From assembly GCA_016182385.1 (NCBI GenBank), contig JACPGV010000007.1, positions 12,147 to 76,146 on the forward strand: 64,000 bases of DNA. The letters are read 5' to 3'. The notes under the pieces were generated by a model. The model searched no databases and was not told the DNA's origin. It was given only the letters and a program-made list of their open reading frames with translations. Origin of the DNA: Candidatus Moraniibacteriota bacterium (GTDB lineage Bacteria > Patescibacteriota > Minisyncoccia > Moranbacterales > UBA1568). Shown here piece by piece: positions 53,323-61,709 of the stretch (the stretch's first letter is position 1; each line of letters starts with the position of its first letter). Position numbers and translations under genes: made by a program.

Positions 53323-55440
53323 TTATTTTGCCGCTTCGGCACTCTGATACTTCTCATGCAACGCCTGATCATATCGCTCACCGTTTTCAATGCCCAATTC
53401 CTGATCACACTTGGGACAATAATCATGTTCTCCTTCGAGATACCCGTGTTTGGGACAAATGGAGAACGTCGGTGTGATCGTGATATACGGCAAACGGAAA
53501 CGAGAAAGAATGCTCCGTACCAATTTACGGCAAGCCTCTCCCGAACTCACTCGTTCGTTCATGTAGCAATGAAGTACTGTTCCACCGGTATACTTCGTCT
53601 GAAGGCTATCCTGTAATTCAAGCACTTCAAAAACATCATCCGTATACCCGACCGGAATCTGTGAGGAATTGGTATAGTACGGCGCTTCTTCGGTGCCCGC
53701 CTGCAAAATACCCTGAAACCGCTTGCGATCTTCTTTGGCAAAACGATAGGTTGTTCCTTCGGCTGGTGTTGCCTCAAGATTGTAAAAATTTCCAGTCTCT
53801 TCTTGATAATCTTTAATTTTCTCACGCATAAAATCAAGCAACTCCTCAGCAAACTTATGTCCTTCAGCGGTCGTGATGTTCTCCTTATCGTTGGTAAAGT
53901 TACGAATAGCCTCGTTGATGCCGTTTATACCAATCGTTGAAAAATGATTCTTAAGATAACCAAGGTAACGCTTCGTGTAAGGGAAAAGTCCCCGATCGAT
54001 CCACTTCTGTATTTCTTGACGCTTAATTTCAAGCGATGTTTTGGCGAGTTCCATCAAATATTCAACACGCTTCATGAATTTTTCCTTATCGCCTTTGCAG
54101 AGGTAGCCAATACGCGCCGCATTGATGGTCACTACACCGATCGAGCCGGTCATCTCCGCTGAACCAAACAATCCGCCGCCACGTTTCCGCAGTTCACGCA
54201 AATCAAGCTGAAGTCTGCAGCACATCGAACGCACGTCGCCGGGATTGAGATCAGAATTAACAAAGTTCTGAAAATATGGTGTGCCATATTTCGCTGTCAT
54301 TTCAAAAAGCGGTAAGTTTTTCGGATCCTCCCAATCAAAATCCTTGGTCACATTGTACGTCGGTATCGGAAAAGTAAAGGTGCGTCCCTTGGCGTCGCCT
54401 TTGGACATCACTTTGATAAAAGCGCTGTTAATAATATCCATCTCGTGTTGAAGCTCACCAAACGTGTACTGAAATGGCTCACCACCGAGAAGGAGACGTT
54501 TCTCACTCATATCCTTCGGACAATCCCAATCAAGCGTGACGTTGGTAAAGGGTGTTTGTGTCCCCCAACGTGACGGAATATTCAGATTGAAAACGAATGA
54601 TTGAACGTTCTGATAAACGTATTCGGAAACCTGCTCGGCGACATATGCCTCTTTTTCCTTTTCTGATGGAAAACGCATTTTATATTTCTCAATATCTGCA
54701 CGCAGTTCCAATTCATACTTCTTCACGAACGGAGCCATATAGGTATCAAAGCTTGAGAACGCTTGCGCACCAGCCCATTCATTTTGTAGCGTACCAAGAA
54801 AATTGACCATCATTGCCACCGCCGAAGAAAGATGTTTGGGCGGAGCGGATTCGATTTTATTTGGTACACCGTTAAATCCTTCTTCAAGGAGCACGCGCAA
54901 ACTCCAACCGGCACAATAACCGGAAAACATATCAAGATCATGAATGTGATAATCACCGTTACGGTGAGCATCACCCACATTCTTGGGATAAATATGAGAG
55001 AGCCAATAATTAGCAATAACACTCCCCGCCGTATTCAAAATCATTCCACCCAAAGAATATCCCTGATTGGAATTGGCATTAACGCGCCAATCAAGTTTTT
55101 CCAAATATTCCGTTACCGTTTTTTGCACTTGCACGACGACGTTTTTCTCTTCGCGTACCTCCCGACGTTTTTCACGATACAAAATATACGCCTTTGCTGT
55201 TTCAGTATATCCATATCTCATGAGAACGTCTTCCACTACATCCTGCACTTCTTCAACTGTCGGGATTTTATCTTCAAATTTTTCTTCCAACCCCGCGTAA
55301 ACGTCCTGTGCAAGAATATAAGAAGTAATATCATCTTTCTTCTCTGTTGCTTCCGCTGCCTTCTCAATAGCCAGCTCAATTTTTTTCAGATCAAAATCAA
55401 CGATACTTCCATTACGCTTCTGGATCTTATATACCGGCAT
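53323..55440 (-). CDS. nrdD: anaerobic ribonucleoside-triphosphate reductase; the ORF ends after the zinc ribbon and lacks the Gly-radical motif
   Basis: ATP-cone N-terminus, class III RNR core, C-terminal CxxH...CxxC ribbon, then a stop. Confidence 0.9.
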   Translation of the reverse strand: MPVYKIQKRNGSIVDFDLKKIELAIEKAAEATEKKDDITSYILAQDVYAGLEEKFEDKIPTVEEVQDVVEDVLMRYGYTETAKAYILYREKRREVREEKNVVVQVQKTVTEYLEKLDWRVNANSNQGYSLGGMILNTAGSVIANYWLSHIYPKNVGDAHRNGDYHIHDLDMFSGYCAGWSLRVLLEEGFNGVPNKIESAPPKHLSSAVAMMVNFLGTLQNEWAGAQAFSSFDTYMAPFVKKYELELRADIEKYKMRFPSEKEKEAYVAEQVSEYVYQNVQSFVFNLNIPSRWGTQTPFTNVTLDWDCPKDMSEKRLLLGGEPFQYTFGELQHEMDIINSAFIKVMSKGDAKGRTFTFPIPTYNVTKDFDWEDPKNLPLFEMTAKYGTPYFQNFVNSDLNPGDVRSMCCRLQLDLRELRKRGGGLFGSAEMTGSIGVVTINAARIGYLCKGDKEKFMKRVEYLMELAKTSLEIKRQEIQKWIDRGLFPYTKRYLGYLKNHFSTIGINGINEAIRNFTNDKENITTAEGHKFAEELLDFMREKIKDYQEETGNFYNLEATPAEGTTYRFAKEDRKRFQGILQAGTEEAPYYTNSSQIPVGYTDDVFEVLELQDSLQTKYTGGTVLHCYMNERVSSGEACRKLVRSILSRFRLPYITITPTFSICPKHGYLEGEHDYCPKCDQELGIENGERYDQALHEKYQSAEAAK

Positions 55441-55816: not shown

Positions 55817-56332
55817 TCATACATGTTTCTTTTCTTTTTCTTCCCGTCCTCTTTTTCTGATAAAAAATGAACCATACAAGACGATGAGTAGAATGACGTT
55901 AGAAACAAAAATAAACGGATTGTTCCACGGAATACCGTACACAACAAAATCAGAAAGTGGCCACAAAAATGGCGTAGGAAAAAAACTCGCATGAGTAGGA
56001 ATATCCAAAAGAATATGAAATCCCCATGCGACAAGAGGAAAAAAGGGCTTGCCCCGTATCAACCAAATGAGCAAAAACACACCAAGAAAAATGACGAGAC
56101 TGTGTGTGTAATCATACAACGTATAAACAAAGAGTGGGATTTGTGAAGCGTCGGGATGCTGGCCAGAACGCCAATCAGGATGATCAAAAAACCCAAACCA
56201 AACACCGAGGAGAAAAAAACCAAAAGACAAAAGATCGGGCGCAACGCCAAACAGAAACGCCATGAAAAAATCGCGACGACTTCGACGACCAAAAATGCCT
56301 GATCCCCACAACCCATGCGAAACGATATCCAT
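55817..56332 (-). CDS. DUF457/YdjM-like membrane-bound metal-dependent hydrolase
   Basis: MDIVSHGLWG N-terminus and multiple TM helices with His residues. Confidence 0.5.
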   Translation of the reverse strand: MDIVSHGLWGSGIFGRRSRRDFFMAFLFGVAPDLLSFGFFLLGVWFGFFDHPDWRSGQHPDASQIPLFVYTLYDYTHSLVIFLGVFLLIWLIRGKPFFPLVAWGFHILLDIPTHASFFPTPFLWPLSDFVVYGIPWNNPFIFVSNVILLIVLYGSFFIRKRGREEKEKKHV

Positions 56333-56350
56333 ACAGAATACTATGCTCAA

Positions 56351-56896
56351 TTATTCTACAATGAGCGTTCCTTGCATCTCACCGTGCCCTTCACCGCAAT
56401 AGACCGCGCAGAAAGACCTAAACGTCCCTTTCTTGCTTGCGACAAATTCCACGACAGCTCCTTCAGGGGGAATATCTTCATTAATGCCAAGATCCGGAAT
56501 GACAATACCATGCTTCACGTCAGCGTTGTGAATCACAAGACGGACAAGCTCGCCCTGCTTCACGCGTAAGACGGCGGGATCCCAAGCATACTGCCGCACC
56601 CCCATATGAATGGTGCGTTCAATCCGGTTGTTCACTTCTTCCACGCTTATTCGCGGATAAGCCCCGGTACCCTGAGAATCCTCGAGACCGTTATTTTCGA
56701 TGACGACTGGTATTTCTTCCAATCTCTTTGTTTCTTTCGATATTATTTGCGATTCCACAACAATCCGCTCTGTCGCCTGCTCCTTATCCGTGGACGAACC
56801 ACTCGTGGGTTTGTCCTGCGCGGTCCGATACACCCACCACGAAATCCCCTCCATAAAGACAAACAGCGTAATAATGAATGCGATAATTTTTTTCAT
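56351..56896 (-). CDS. cupredoxin-domain (plastocyanin-like) copper-binding protein
   Basis: Signal anchor. C-terminal CAVYCGEGHGEMQGTLIV carries Cys/His/Met copper ligands. Confidence 0.6.
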   Translation of the reverse strand: MKKIIAFIITLFVFMEGISWWVYRTAQDKPTSGSSTDKEQATERIVVESQIISKETKRLEEIPVVIENNGLEDSQGTGAYPRISVEEVNNRIERTIHMGVRQYAWDPAVLRVKQGELVRLVIHNADVKHGIVIPDLGINEDIPPEGAVVEFVASKKGTFRSFCAVYCGEGHGEMQGTLIVE

Positions 56897-56921
56897 GGCG
56901 TTTTTTTTCTACAACATCTAT

Positions 56922-59900
56922 CTACGGCGTTCCTCCGACTTTGGATGACCAGAAACTGATGCCATTTGGTTGTTTGCCGACCGTGATGCGAGCAATCTCT
57001 CGATCTTCCCTCGTATCAACCACGGAAACATCCCCACCTAAAAGATTCGTCACATATGCGAATCGTCCATCCGGAGAAACAACGATTCCATGTGCCGCCT
57101 CTCCCACCGGAATGGTTTGTACGACTTCTTTTCCAACGATATCGATCTTATAGAGCATCTTTCCTACCGGCTGGTCAAAATAATATCCTTGATCCGCCAC
57201 ATAGAGAAAGCGACTGTCCGGCGTGGGATAAAGCTGTACCGGCCCCCTCGCTTCTTTTGAAAGAGAAATCTCCTGGATCTTCTGCGTATCTCGCTCCATC
57301 AGAATGATACTTTTTCTATCATAGAGAGAAGCGGCTACCCATTTCCCATCCGGCGTCACTGCTGCTTGAACGCCTTTGCCCTCGCTCACAACTTTTTGGA
57401 TTGTGCCACTAGCAATGTCGAGCGACCAAAAACCGCCTCCGATAAAAGCAATATAGGCTGTCTGATCATCGATTGAAAGTCGCAAACCGTGCGGGCTGCT
57501 TCCTTTCGGCAATGTGATCTCACGCAAAACCTTGAAACTCTTCGCGTCTATCTCATAGACCAAATCGGATGCTTGGGCCGCAACATACGCCCGCTCTCCA
57601 AAACGGCTCATCACGACATGAGCGAGATGCGATTCTGACGCCAAAGAAATACGCTTCATCACCGTATCCGTTTTCGGATCAATAACGATAACTTGATCTT
57701 TTTCACTCATTTCTCCTTTCATGGTATCCGCACGCACTACGGAAATGATACGGCGGAAAATACTCACCTTCTCATCTTTCATAGCGACATTGGCGGTCAC
57801 CCACACGCTTTGCCCGTCCGGAGCGACTTGGATATTATGGGCAGAAAATGAAATTTCTTCATTTCCCATCCGGCGCGTCAAATCGATTTCTCGAATCATT
57901 TTTTTTGTTTCCGGATCAAGCACGACTACCGTACTTTCTCCTTCAAGCGCCACGTACACCTTGTTCTCTATCTGTCCAGCATATGAAGCTGCGTCCTGTA
58001 TATTTTCATCATTCATGGCTATACTGCTCCATCTTGCAAATTGAAAAAACAACAATGAGAAAATAACTACCAGAATCATCGGTGTCATAAGAGACAACCA
58101 GTTTTTCTTTCCCGGACGAAAAAAACGAAGAAACAAAGAATTCGTCACGACCGATACCGACGAAAGTGCCATAGCAAGACCGGCAAGTTCCGGCTTCAAC
58201 ACGAGACCGACATCCGCGAACAATCGTGCGGCGATCGGAATTCCCATCACGTTATACAAAAGCGCGAAAAAGAAATTCTGTTTTATTTTTTGCATCGTCT
58301 CTCGGGAAAGCTCAAACGCTGTCACAACATCGCGCAAATCATTTTTCATAAGAACGATGCCACCAGTCTCCATTGCCACGTCCGTCCCCGCTCCCATCGC
58401 AATACCAAGATCTGCCTGTGCAAGAGCCGGCGCGTCATTGATACCATCGCCGACCATGGCTACTTTTTTTCCGTGAGATTGCAATTCCTTAACCTTAGCG
58501 GATTTTTCTTCCGGGAGCACTCCCGCCAATACGTTCTTGATACCAACCGTTTCCGCAATGGCACGCGCCGTCCGCTCATTGTCGCCCGTAATCATCCATA
58601 CGTTAAGACCAAGCTTTCCGAGTTTTGCCACCGCCTCTTTCGATGTTTCCTTGACGGTATCCGCAACCGCGATTCCGCCAACAGCCCCTTCCGGTGTCGC
58701 CAGGATCATCACGGTCTTGCCTTGTTTTTCCAACTCAAAAATTTTCTCATTCATCTGATGAGGCAATACACCGCTATCGCTCACCAGCTTATAATTCCCA
58801 AAACAATATTCTTTTCCATCTATCTCTCCTCGTACACCACGTCCCGGAATCGCTCGAAAACTCCTCACCTCAAAAAGTTTTAATTTTTTTTCATTCGCAC
58901 GAGCATAAATCGCTTCCGCAAGTGGATGCTCAGAAAGCTTCTCAAGACTTGCAGCAATCGAAAGAATATCATCCTCCGTCATGTCGCAAAAAGAAAAAGT
59001 GTCCGTTACTTCCGGCTTTCCCCGAGTAATAGTTCCTGTCTTGTCAAAAATAATCGTCGTAATCTTTCTCGTCATTTCGAGCGGCTCGCCACCTTTGATA
59101 AGAATACCGTTCTCCGCGCCCTTGCCGGTACCTACCATAAGCGCCGTCGGCGTCGCTAATCCCAAAGCACACGGACACGCGATCACGATCACCGCAGTAA
59201 AAGCCATCAGGGCAAATGATAGATCCGCTCCGAGCAACACGTACCACACACCAAAAGTCAAAAACGCGATACCGATAACGGTCGGCACAAACCACGCGGA
59301 AACTCGATCAGCAAAATCCTGAATCGGCGCTTTGGACCCCTGGGCTTCTTCGATAAGTCGTATAATATTGGCAAGCACTGTCTCACTCCCCACGCGCGTC
59401 GCCTCACACTCAAAGCTGCCGGCCTTGTTCATCGTTCCGCCAATCACGGAGTCACCAACATTTTTTTCCACTGGCAAACTTTCACCGGTAACCATCGATT
59501 CATCAACAGCCGAGACACCACTTCTTATTTTTCCATCAACAGGAATTCTTTCTCCCGGGCGCACGACTACGATATCGCCATGCACCACTTCTCCTATCGG
59601 AACATCTTCTGTCGCGCCCCCGCGCACCACCCGAGCCGTCTTTACCGTAAAATCCATTAATTTTCTCACCGCCTCTGATGTTTTGTTCTTCGTTCTTGTT
59701 TCAAGCCATTTTCCAAGCACTACAAATGTGATCAAAAACGCGGCTGTTTCAAAATACAATTCTGGAATTTTTTCCCCGGCAAGACCGATAAAAGAATCAT
59801 TCTCCCATACATATCGCCCATAATTCGTCACGCTGTACAAAAACGCCGTTGTTGTTCCTAAAGCGATAAGACTATCCATATTAAACATCTTCATCCGAAG

Positions 59901-60347
59901 CGATGACCACGCACCACGATAAAATCCCGCACCGATCCAAAATTGCACCGGGAGAGTAAGAAAAAGCGATACGACCCCGACATACGGCAACAACGTGTCT
60001 TTGCCAAAAACTTGAAAAAAATCAAAGAGCATAAAATAAAACATCGGCATCGAGAATACCAGTCCCCAGATAAATTTCCGCCGATATGTGCCGACCACAA
60101 GCTCTTGTTTCTTTTTTTCATATTCCGTATCTTCAGAATTGATTTCTTCCGCCTCGTATCCGGCCGCCCGTACCGTCTGTTTCAAGACGGCAACAGTGGT
60201 TTGATTATCATCAAACAGCACGGTGACTTTTTCGGTAGCGAAGTTCACGTTTGCCGATTCCACACCGCGTACCTTCTTGAGTGCCCGCTCAATGATGCTC
60301 GCGCATGAAGCACAATGCATCCCCGAAAGAGAAAGTTGCTTTTTCAT
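56922..60347 (-). CDS. copA: copper-translocating P1B-type ATPase fused to a C-terminal YVTN beta-propeller domain
   Basis: HMA domain (GMHCASCA), CPC motif, DKTGTIT and GDGINDAP. After an extra TM helix there are about 390 aa of YVTN repeats ([15 protein letters not shown]). Confidence 0.9.
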
Positions 60348-60365: not shown

Positions 60366-61709
60366 TTACTCTACGACGTTGATCACGCCACGATACATAC
60401 CCATAGAACAACTAAAAGGAATCTGTCCGGTCTTATCCGGCACAAATTCAAAAACGTTTTCACCGGGCGAAAGCACTTTACGAATACCGGCTCTGGGCGC
60501 CACGAAACTCACCGCGCAACTATATGATTCCTGTGAATCAACAATAAGCTTTACCGGTTGACCCTTTTTGACAGTCAATTGATTGGGGAAATATCCATTA
60601 GCTTTTTGCGTAACACGAATGATTTGAGGTTCTTGCAAAAAGGAGTTTTCTCCAGCAATATTTTTTTCTTTCTGTTCGTCGCTTCCAAGTCCTACCAACA
60701 CTTGTCCATTTTGGACATTAAAAACACCCAACAAAACAACAATGATGCCGGCTACTTTGAAGAAAAAACCACGTGTCGCCCCCTTGACTGCCGCCGCCGC
60801 ACCACCGATGCCAAGAAGTCCTGGTGCCGTGCCGAGAGCAAACACTCCCATAACAAGAGCGCCGACGGACGGGCTCCCCTGTGTCACGACAAAAAGTTGC
60901 GCCAATTGCGTAAAACCACAGGGCAGAAAAAATGTCACCACGCCAAGGAATATCGTCCGCGTGTGACTATACTCTTTTTCTGTATGAGACCGAATACCAA
61001 ATATCCGAGCAATACCCTTCGGCAGTGTCAGTTTCCACAAAGATAACCGTGGAAAAAGTTCAAGGAGTTGTACACCGATAAGAACCATCACCGCACCAAC
61101 CGCCACGGTAAGTACGCCTATCAAAAGAGATGAAGGCTGAAATGTCGAACCAAACCATCCCAAAAGCGTGCCCAACACCGTAAATCCTCCGATACGCCCA
61201 AGATTAAAATACACATGTGGCACAAATTTCTGACGAACACCCAACTCAGGATGAAGCTTGTTATACCGCGCAGAAATCGCCAATGTCAATCCGCCAACGA
61301 TCGCCATGCACGTCGACAAGCCAGCCACCAATCCAACCAAAAACACAAACGGCAAACTCTCTAAACGCTCAGGGGAACCGAACGACACGTCAAACAATCC
61401 GAAAAACTTTGCGAAAACAAAAAGCACAAACACAATACCTATCGCGAACAATGTTTCCACCCAAACAGTCACGTCTTTGGAAAACCATGATTGTTCACTG
61501 GCACCACCAATCTTGTATCCGATCTTTTCAACTACTTCTTTGAGTGCATTGAGAGAAGGTGCGGTCTCTTCATATGATATTTCCGCTTTCCCTGTACGAA
61601 AATTCGTTTTTGCCTTTTGTACGCCCGGCACCTCAAGCAAGGCCTCTTCCGTAAGCAACTCACAAGAGCGACAATGCATACCAGAAATCTGAAATGTTTT
61701 TTTCTTCAT
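60366..61709 (-). CDS. HMA-domain protein with a TauE/DsbD_2-like permease and a C-terminal cupredoxin-like domain
   Basis: N-terminal GMHCRSCE metal-binding motif, about 8 TM helices, and a C-terminal beta domain with FSCSMGMYRGV. Confidence 0.6.
   Translation of the reverse strand: MKKKTFQISGMHCRSCELLTEEALLEVPGVQKAKTNFRTGKAEISYEETAPSLNALKEVVEKIGYKIGGASEQSWFSKDVTVWVETLFAIGIVFVLFVFAKFFGLFDVSFGSPERLESLPFVFLVGLVAGLSTCMAIVGGLTLAISARYNKLHPELGVRQKFVPHVYFNLGRIGGFTVLGTLLGWFGSTFQPSSLLIGVLTVAVGAVMVLIGVQLLELFPRLSLWKLTLPKGIARIFGIRSHTEKEYSHTRTIFLGVVTFFLPCGFTQLAQLFVVTQGSPSVGALVMGVFALGTAPGLLGIGGAAAAVKGATRGFFFKVAGIIVVLLGVFNVQNGQVLVGLGSDEQKEKNIAGENSFLQEPQIIRVTQKANGYFPNQLTVKKGQPVKLIVDSQESYSCAVSFVAPRAGIRKVLSPGENVFEFVPDKTGQIPFSCSMGMYRGVINVVE

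Follow-up and report, generated by a model that had tools for sequence, protein, structure and literature searches.

What receives the copper that a CopA-type pump exports? A review that describes the CopA of Archaeoglobus fulgidus with eight transmembrane (TM) helices, and places the C-terminus of canonical CopA in the cytoplasm, lists the exit path of Cu(I) from these well-studied P1B pumps and its outside recipients as open, and treats the hand-off of exported Cu(I) to CusF and CueO as established (PMC7558416). The question is raised in an unusual form by contig JACPGV010000007.1 of a Candidatus Moraniibacteriota bacterium (assembly GCA_016182385.1), in which a 64,000-nucleotide (nt) stretch (hereafter the window, meaning the whole stretch analysed) contains a gene that fuses a CopA ATPase to a C-terminal YVTN-type beta-propeller. 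We asked whether this fusion is real, what kind of propeller it carries, and what the propeller might do. Related propellers are encoded beside copper pumps in several phyla, and this propeller family is probably the pump's outside copper-receiving partner. The fusion acts as a "Rosetta stone" that ties the pump to a widespread, unstudied propeller family, and it offers a concrete candidate acceptor for exported Cu(I). Full-text literature searches returned no description of a CopA-propeller fusion or of this propeller family in cop operons; the protein has a public database entry, though only with a generic name, and the fusion and the copper-linked family appear to be newly described.

A copper pump with a ninth helix and a C-terminal propeller

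The fusion is encoded by a single uninterrupted open reading frame (ORF) of 1141 amino acids (aa), without an internal stop in the ORF listing (Table 1). Pfam domains were found at aa 5-65 (HMA), 235-412 (E1-E2_ATPase) and 429-646 (HAD), and the NCBIfam model for Cu-ATPases, TIGR01511, scored 627.6 bits against a cut-off of 397, with TIGR01525 at 661.1 bits against 346. The pump contains the catalytic motifs TGES (287-290), DKTGT (435-439), SEHPL (472-476) and GDGINDAP (633-640), and its transmembrane Cu(I) signature is complete, with CPC at 391-393 in helix M4, LYN at 697-699 in M5 and MALSS at 726-730 in M6. The HMA domain has a CxxC motif (CASC, aa 12-15). Judged by these motifs and models, the core is a bona fide CopA-type P1B-1 Cu(I) ATPase, with the same pump core and motifs as the canonical CopAs of A. 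fulgidus, Legionella pneumophila and Escherichia coli.

The protein differs from canonical CopA in what follows M6. Rather than ending in the cytoplasm after eight helices, it continues through a short basic loop (FFRPGKKN) into a ninth hydrophobic helix (TM9, aa ~750-772) and then into a covalently attached outside domain. TM9 falls within aa 748-778, where the tail is most hydrophobic (Kyte-Doolittle hydropathy 2.31), and comes directly after M6, and the propeller is tethered within ~22 residues of it. Because this ninth helix follows the eight canonical ones, the C-terminus and the propeller are predicted to lie outside the cell. A sequence-only reading, made by a model from the letters and the translated ORFs, had proposed both an extra TM segment after the ATPase helices and an extracytoplasmic propeller, and the hydropathy peak and the odd number of helices agree with it on both points.

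When the C-terminal domain was searched in isolation, the YVTN repeat model TIGR02276 matched it in four stretches with 97.9 bits (cut-off 27.85). Three Pfam models also matched the C-terminal part above their cut-offs (DUF5074, 37.4 vs 27.2; YNCE, 31.2 vs 27.1; Cytochrom_D1, 28.1 vs 25.5), with weak matches to Lactonase and SGL, and the closest match in both sequence and fold was an archaeal surface-layer (S-layer) YVTN propeller, 1l0q. The repeat score, above its threshold, and a confidently predicted fold of seven blades identify the domain as a YVTN-type propeller, as had been called from the letters; the peptide quoted for that call lies at aa 1097-1111 (57015-57059). The length first given for the repeats, about 390 residues, matches the 391 aa from residue 751 onward, but the folded propeller accounts for only ~347 of them.

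Table 1. Features of the fusion gene and its surroundings, in window coordinates (pLDDT, predicted local distance difference test).
Feature	Position	Strand	Evidence or remark
Whole fusion gene: HMA, Cu(I) P1B-1 ATPase, TM9, seven-bladed propeller	56922..60347	-	Stop codon 56922-56924
N-terminal cytoplasmic HMA metal-binding domain, aa 5-65, CxxC at aa 12-15	60153..60335	-	Pfam HMA, 64.8 bits; MHCASC motif
CopA core, aa 80-745, eight canonical TM helices with A, P and N domains	58113..60110	-	TIGR01511 and motifs
TM9, aa ~750-772, after the basic loop FFRPGKKN	58032..58100	-	Hydropathy 2.31; motif conserved in Patescibacteria CopA homologues
Linker between TM9 and propeller, aa 773-794	57966..58031	-	Low to intermediate pLDDT, one short helix in the model
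Seven-bladed YVTN-type beta-propeller with family-invariant ring, aa 795-1141	56925..57965	-	
Disordered insert between blades 1 and 2, aa 854-884, Met-containing here	57696..57788	-	pLDDT <50
Recombination tract, ~1.95 kb: CopA M5-M6, TM9, propeller, cupredoxin gene	56300..58250	.	Sliding-window DNA and protein identity vs L002/P0122
Membrane-anchored CuA-type cupredoxin, 181 aa, 25 nt downstream of the fusion	56351..56896	-	Pfam Cupredoxin_1 and COX2
HMA / DsbD_2 membrane domain / C-terminal Cupredoxin_1, 447 aa, upstream	60366..61709	-	Pfam
177-aa polytopic His-containing membrane protein, last in the gene row	55817..56350	-	

The fusion is genuine and rare

The same 1141-aa protein (P0121) was recovered from NCBI and from an independent Logan assembly. 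Three further fusions were found: P0122, 81% identical and likewise present in two independent assemblies (NCBI and Logan), and P0123 and P0124, at 58-59% identity (ENA and Logan). All four share the order M6, basic loop, TM9, linker and propeller across the junction, with a linker sequence that varies among them, and neither GC content nor GC skew shows more than a gradual change across position ~58100. A frameshift or assembly join at that position, which the sequence-only reading had asked to be checked, was rejected on the continuous frame, the identical protein in independent assemblies and the junction shared with three other fusions, and the fusion itself is accepted as real.

It is also as unusual as first supposed. 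When 1.84 billion cluster representatives were searched exhaustively by phmmer with a junction-spanning query, the junction was covered only by the protein's own cluster, and four fusion clusters at 90% identity were found among 5.8 billion.

The propeller belongs to a distinct family

The propeller's closest relatives, at 45-52% identity, stand alone and measure 340-400 aa, or ~520 aa where a DUF1573 domain is present. Of 118 stand-alone homologues, 107 start with a signal peptide, a lipobox or a TM anchor. Alignments of 61 and 124 members, read against the structure model, revealed a set of residues that do not vary, placed on every blade's inner strand at positions 2-4 or immediately before them: H837 in blade 1 (motif HNxQV), H907 and H910 in blade 2 (HLxH), H953 in blade 3 (PHGLR), Q994 in blade 4 (VQ), Q1038 in blade 5 (GPxQ), H1086 in blade 6 (PHG) and N1128 in blade 7 (PNG). 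This ring of five His, two Gln and one Asn is a trait of the family, because the equivalent positions are occupied by M, Q, L, K, S and A in the generic S-layer YVTN protein.

Comparison by hhalign with the NosZ of Sinorhizobium meliloti (recovered from pSymA DNA) gave a probability of 71% and an E-value of 3.7e-5. In this alignment, made with the S. meliloti protein only, H907, H953 and H1086 fall on the His of the NosZ motifs DLHHPH, VHGLR and PHG, which are ligands of the CuZ centre in NosZ structures. The alignment supports a ring that faces the central channel, and together with the inner-strand positions it leads us to infer that the ring lines one mouth of that channel.

A second shared trait is the loop between blades 1 and 2. 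In 109 homologues it is richer than the whole protein in His (7.3% vs 2.2%), Met (6.4% vs 2.1%) and Glu (14.6% vs 5.1%); the insert is disordered in the AlphaFold2 (AF2) model, and a typical His/Met/Glu-rich example reads HGHGEHDENEDHQESDIHGG. By its sequence, then, the propeller represents a distinct family. The YVTN label given by the sequence-only reading stands in a narrower sense: the domain is not a generic repeat domain but a member of a specific family that recurs as a stand-alone neighbour of P1B-ATPase genes.

Two family members carry other decorations. The homologue P0376 has a long, low-complexity, Met/His-rich tract at its N-terminus (MSGMSMSGMNMPHTSMSGMDMSHMSMSGMMM), including a Met-rich part with MSGM/MxM motifs (MSGMSMSGMNMPH...) of the classic Cu(I) "Mets" motif type. 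In P0367 the same propeller stands behind an unrelated polytopic N-terminal membrane domain of ~165 aa with a PHGHDEEEE linker; this protein resembled a fusion by its coordinates and was set aside, the membrane part being a different anchor.

The propeller family is linked to copper pumps

We surveyed 80 loci with family members in species-representative genomes, with flanks of up to 10 kb. Many Patescibacteria classes are represented, as are Gammaproteobacteria (among them Methylococcaceae and Francisellaceae), Acidobacteria and a single Woesearchaeote (DPANN). The propeller is fused to a P1B-ATPase in one locus and lies within 300 bp of one on the same strand in 26 (pump first in 15, propeller first in 11). 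Another 15 loci have a P1B-ATPase within 3 kb and four have one farther away within the flanks, leaving 34 with none, many of which are short contigs. The estimate for chance adjacency is well below 1% for genomes of ~1 Mb with one or two such pumps. Two gene orders recur in Patescibacteria, Gammaproteobacteria and the Woesearchaeote, CsoR-CopA-propeller-DsbD_2-cupredoxin and CsoR-propeller-CopA-multicopper oxidase. Genes for YHS, SHOCT, DUF2933 and ICMT proteins are frequent near these loci; clusters of ATPase, cupredoxin, DUF2933 and ICMT genes have been catalogued in copper-adapted Alteromonas and relatives (PMC8478169). The pumps beside stand-alone propellers end seven residues after M6 and are ordinary eight-helix CopAs.

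The fusions themselves fall into two groups, which do not form sister branches when the propellers are placed in a neighbour-joining tree. The propeller of the fusion in the window is nearest to a clade of stand-alone proteins of ~385-440 aa, its nearest homologue by pairwise identity being P0002 (52%) from Peribacteraceae, and the P0123/P0124 propeller has its closest relatives among DUF1573-type proteins (53-55%). Between the two groups the propellers are only 44% identical, compared with 52-55% to stand-alone proteins, and the CopA parts are less alike than each is to unfused CopAs. Although the tree is rough, this suggests that the fusion arose twice independently, which would strengthen the functional link between pump and propeller.

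A candidate acceptor for exported copper

On balance we lean towards reading the propeller as the pump's extracytoplasmic copper acceptor, either a metallochaperone or a buffer. The pump would export Cu(I), and TM9 would hold the propeller beside the exit. The flexible Met/His/Glu-rich loop would be the first to catch Cu(I) leaving the pump, and the ion would next be held at the invariant His/Gln/Asn ring at one mouth of the central channel. From there it might be passed to a CuA-type cupredoxin, to the cupredoxin domain of the DsbD_2 protein or to a multicopper oxidase, or be released away from the membrane. Patescibacteria are generally regarded as single-membrane cells, and tethering may replace periplasmic confinement in them. 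Of the roles offered by the sequence-only reading, metal hand-off and chaperone-like capture fit the His ring, the His/Met-rich loop and the adjacency to copper pumps, but surface attachment does not.

The analogy behind this reading is AztD, a periplasmic zinc chaperone that is a beta-propeller encoded in a transporter operon, with a three-His site in its central pore and disordered His-rich tracts; its authors present it as the first case of a propeller taking part in metal transfer (PMC6689063). Like AztD, the CopA-linked propeller is predicted to lie outside the cytoplasm, is encoded with a transporter and has a disordered tract, which across the family is rich in His, Met and Glu. AztD hands its metal directly to a transporter component, and a transfer of copper from the pump is proposed for the CopA-linked propeller by this analogy and on the evidence above. 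The two also differ: AztD has eight blades and works with zinc on the uptake side, with a solute-binding protein, whereas the CopA-linked propeller has seven blades in the model and a copper context on the efflux side; and AztD has three His, whereas the CopA-linked ring has five together with Gln and Asn and is occasionally fused to the pump. AztD (PDB 6n01) appeared among the Foldseek matches at rank 17, and membership of its family was excluded by blade number and by a weak NF038015 score (25.3 bits against a cut-off of 400). No propeller fold was found among described copper chaperones in the literature searches made. If the acceptor reading is right, this would be the second propeller in metal trafficking after AztD and the first on the efflux or copper side.

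Several observations weigh against an acceptor role. The loop of the fusion protein itself has four Met and no His. Further invariant residues (R956 of PHGLR, and ADQGYYF) resemble a substrate site more than a simple metal site. Around 14 stand-alone homologues lack a neighbouring P1B-ATPase although their flanks span the full 10 kb, and other outside copper proteins (multicopper oxidase, cupredoxins) are already present in many loci, so that a pure chaperone is not required there. Since the pumps beside stand-alone propellers are ordinary eight-helix CopAs, the case for physical contact between pump and propeller is one of adjacency and the rare fusions. Finally, the locus of P0002 (L004/L005) has no adjoining pump and contains genes for a nitroreductase, a ferredoxin-reductase-like FAD/NAD protein, a short-chain dehydrogenase and DUF305; this redox context suits an enzyme better than a chaperone.

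Is the propeller a copper enzyme?

An enzyme is indeed the alternative that survives best, although we consider it rather unlikely. The propeller would then be catalytic, resembling NosZ or thiocyanate dehydrogenase, with a metal centre loaded by the fused pump and electrons passing through the CuA-type cupredoxin encoded by the next gene; oxidation of Cu(I) or reduction of N2O or O2 could be its reaction. Like NosZ, L-NosZ and thiocyanate dehydrogenase, the family has a predicted seven-bladed propeller with inner-strand His that would surround the central channel, and it has HGLR and PHG..PDG motifs in common with the S. meliloti NosZ, where three of the ring His align with CuZ-ligand motifs. 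The two genes, propeller and then CuA cupredoxin, also follow each other as the domains do in NosZ. L-NosZ ranks second among the NCBIfam models that match the propeller, the cupredoxin end of this model is hit by the next gene, that gene encodes a complete CuA ligand set, and both genes lie in one recently exchanged 1.95-kb tract (see below). The invariant residues that are not ligands, the Arg of PHGLR and ADQGYYF, hint at a substrate pocket.

Against this, the L-NosZ matches are weak: the propeller alone scores 83.7 bits and the full protein 72.3, far below the NF052460 cut-off of 700, and membership was excluded. L-NosZ is moreover one polypeptide, whereas the cupredoxin here is a separate gene product with its own TM anchor that also occurs in operons without a propeller. 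NosZ clades I and II were excluded as well, the models TIGR04244 and TIGR04246 giving 14-15 bits against 625, with only three His on the ligand motifs. The ring has five His, two Gln and one Asn, compared with seven His in CuZ. The cupredoxin is general in Patescibacteria cop operons, also those with propeller-less CopAs, and none is encoded beside the P0123 fusion, which weakens the idea of a "split NosZ" made of propeller and cupredoxin. The host operons, finally, are CsoR-type copper-stress operons and not respiratory clusters.

A broader version of this idea is that the CopA-linked propellers form a new class of extracytoplasmic copper-centre proteins near the root of the NosZ, L-NosZ and thiocyanate dehydrogenase propellers, the Moranbacteria fusion being a cuproenzyme joined to the pump that metallates it, with the CuA cupredoxin as electron partner. 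We regard this as unlikely. The organisms that carry the Moranbacteria fusion are thought to lack respiratory chains, and, if the copper-centre reading were true, such cells would possess a redox module at their surface, such as a cuprous oxidase or a reductase of small molecules.

Regulatory, structural or unrelated roles

The short tether, within ~22 residues of a helix that follows M6 directly, would also suit an outside sensor, gate or stabiliser that tunes the pump, or a scaffold to partners in the cell envelope, with no metal handled by the propeller. We think this quite improbable. Most members of the family are separate proteins, many of them lipoproteins, beside eight-helix pumps, and an invariant His/Gln/Asn ring with His/Met-rich tracts is typical of metal sites and not of interfaces between proteins.

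Still less probable, in our view, is a propeller unrelated to copper, joined to CopA by chance, such as an adhesion or S-layer-type YVTN domain serving episymbiosis or a lactonase-type hydrolase. The best match in sequence and fold is the S-layer propeller 1l0q, the Pfam Lactonase and SGL models match weakly, and the exhaustive search also returned giant multi-YVTN surface proteins, but the last of these match through many short, generic repeat stretches. Adjacency to P1B-ATPase, CsoR and multicopper oxidase genes recurs across phyla, including Gammaproteobacteria (Methylococcaceae and unclassified metagenome-assembled genomes), the fusion probably arose twice, and the ring residues are specific to the family and missing in 1l0q. 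S-layer YVTN propellers and YncE of E. coli have structural or DNA-binding roles; 1l0q (from a Methanosarcina S-layer) and YncE differ from the CopA-linked family in having no invariant His/Gln/Asn ring, no His/Met-rich loop and no linkage to copper genes.

The ninth helix is a feature of a Patescibacteria CopA clade

The extra TM segment noted by the sequence-only reading is present but is not peculiar to the fusion. A TM9 motif (...FS.LFFQFAKLSS) follows M6 in the best 120 CopA homologues, of which those assigned to an organism are all Patescibacteria, and it is kept even in CopAs of ~790 aa that end ~15 residues later. As far as sequence can tell, the ninth helix is thus a feature of a clade of related Patescibacteria CopAs. 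The C-terminus in this clade already faces outward by the same helix count, and this made the fusion possible.

Many of the nine-helix CopAs have other outside modules at the position of the propeller, among them a Cys-rich module of ~270 aa and a rhodanese domain. The propeller is one rare choice within a modular scheme of CopA outside domains. A conserved TM9 with interchangeable outside modules suggests that the CopA of Patescibacteria serves as a modular platform for handling copper at the surface, which would be relevant to how cells thought to have no periplasm cope with metals. A description of a nine-helix P1B-1 ATPase variant was not found in the full-text literature searches.

The Cys-rich module occupies the C-terminal ~270 aa of P0130, P0134 and P0139 (YRPCCNNSTFFPDCNHGMA ... 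GGGSCGV) and has no Pfam match. The rhodanese domain was seen in P0160.

Exchange of the 3' cassette between two Moranbacteria lineages

Identity to the corresponding locus of the nearest relative, a second Moranbacteria genome (L002, which encodes P0122), is uneven along the gene row. A tract from ~58250, in helix M5, to ~56300, where the cupredoxin gene ends, is mostly 91-97% identical at the DNA level, with 85-89% at 56900-56600. Outside the tract DNA identity is 61-76%, both in the CopA core (61-76%) and beyond ~56300 (66-74%). This pattern indicates a recent homologous exchange of the 3' cassette between two Moranbacteria lineages, and an exchanged cassette of this kind is consistent with swappable C-terminal modules. 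Recombination is preferred to misassembly because the breakpoint lies inside the conserved pump and both versions occur in independent assemblies. The jump from 71% to 95% at ~58250 makes a strain-chimeric contig conceivable, but an artefact that joined two genes, whether by a missed stop, a frameshift or a chimeric assembly, is hardly credible given that the jump lies inside M5, ~150 nt upstream of TM9 and away from the domain junction, that both protein versions were found in independent assemblies (NCBI and Logan), that the same junction recurs in two more fusions at 58-59% identity, and that the reading frame is continuous.

Neighbouring genes

The cupredoxin encoded directly downstream of the fusion (Table 1) matches Pfam COX2 with 28.6 bits (cut-off 22). 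Aligned with the CuA domain of Thermus thermophilus ba3 oxidase (2cua and others, E ~1e-9), it has all five side-chain ligands, H, C, C, H and M, in the arrangement H...C-x3-C-x3-H-x2-M of a COX2-type cupredoxin. Its family comprises 217 matches of 165-198 aa. Members also occur in Patescibacteria cop operons with a short-tailed CopA or a CopA that carries another module, often after a DUF411 gene (loci L095, L096 and L097). Because it is found without a propeller and is missing beside the P0123 fusion, the cupredoxin belongs to the cop operon and is not specifically the propeller's partner; in this it differs from the cupredoxin domain of NosZ, being separate, membrane-anchored and part of an operon with a copper-stress context. 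In sister Moranbacteria operons the slot right after CopA is occupied by DUF411, the CopG family, which counts with CusF, CueO and CueP among the outside partners of canonical CopA.

The HMA/DsbD_2/Cupredoxin_1 gene precedes the fusion in L001, L002 and L003 and an unfused CopA in L095 and L097. In its product the DsbD_2 domain has two membrane-embedded Cys, and the cupredoxin end has Cys and Met (FSCSMGMY) and not the His ligands of a type-1 site; the protein could be a metal permease or a conduit for reductant. The 177-aa membrane protein at the other end of the gene row has several His that look conserved and no Pfam or NCBIfam match. Its homologues lie in the cop-type loci L014, L029 and L030, in the last of these right after a multicopper oxidase gene.

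A scan of the gene row for promoters and terminators found nothing above the shuffled expectation. The copper-related queries, which did not include oxidase subunit I or nos genes, detected no further copper genes elsewhere in the window. A gene for a class III, NrdD-type anaerobic ribonucleotide reductase lies a few genes downstream of the cop row (53323..55440, - strand), and such a gene is likewise found a few genes downstream in the unfused Moranbacteria locus L095 (12298-12579), so that synteny extends beyond the operon.

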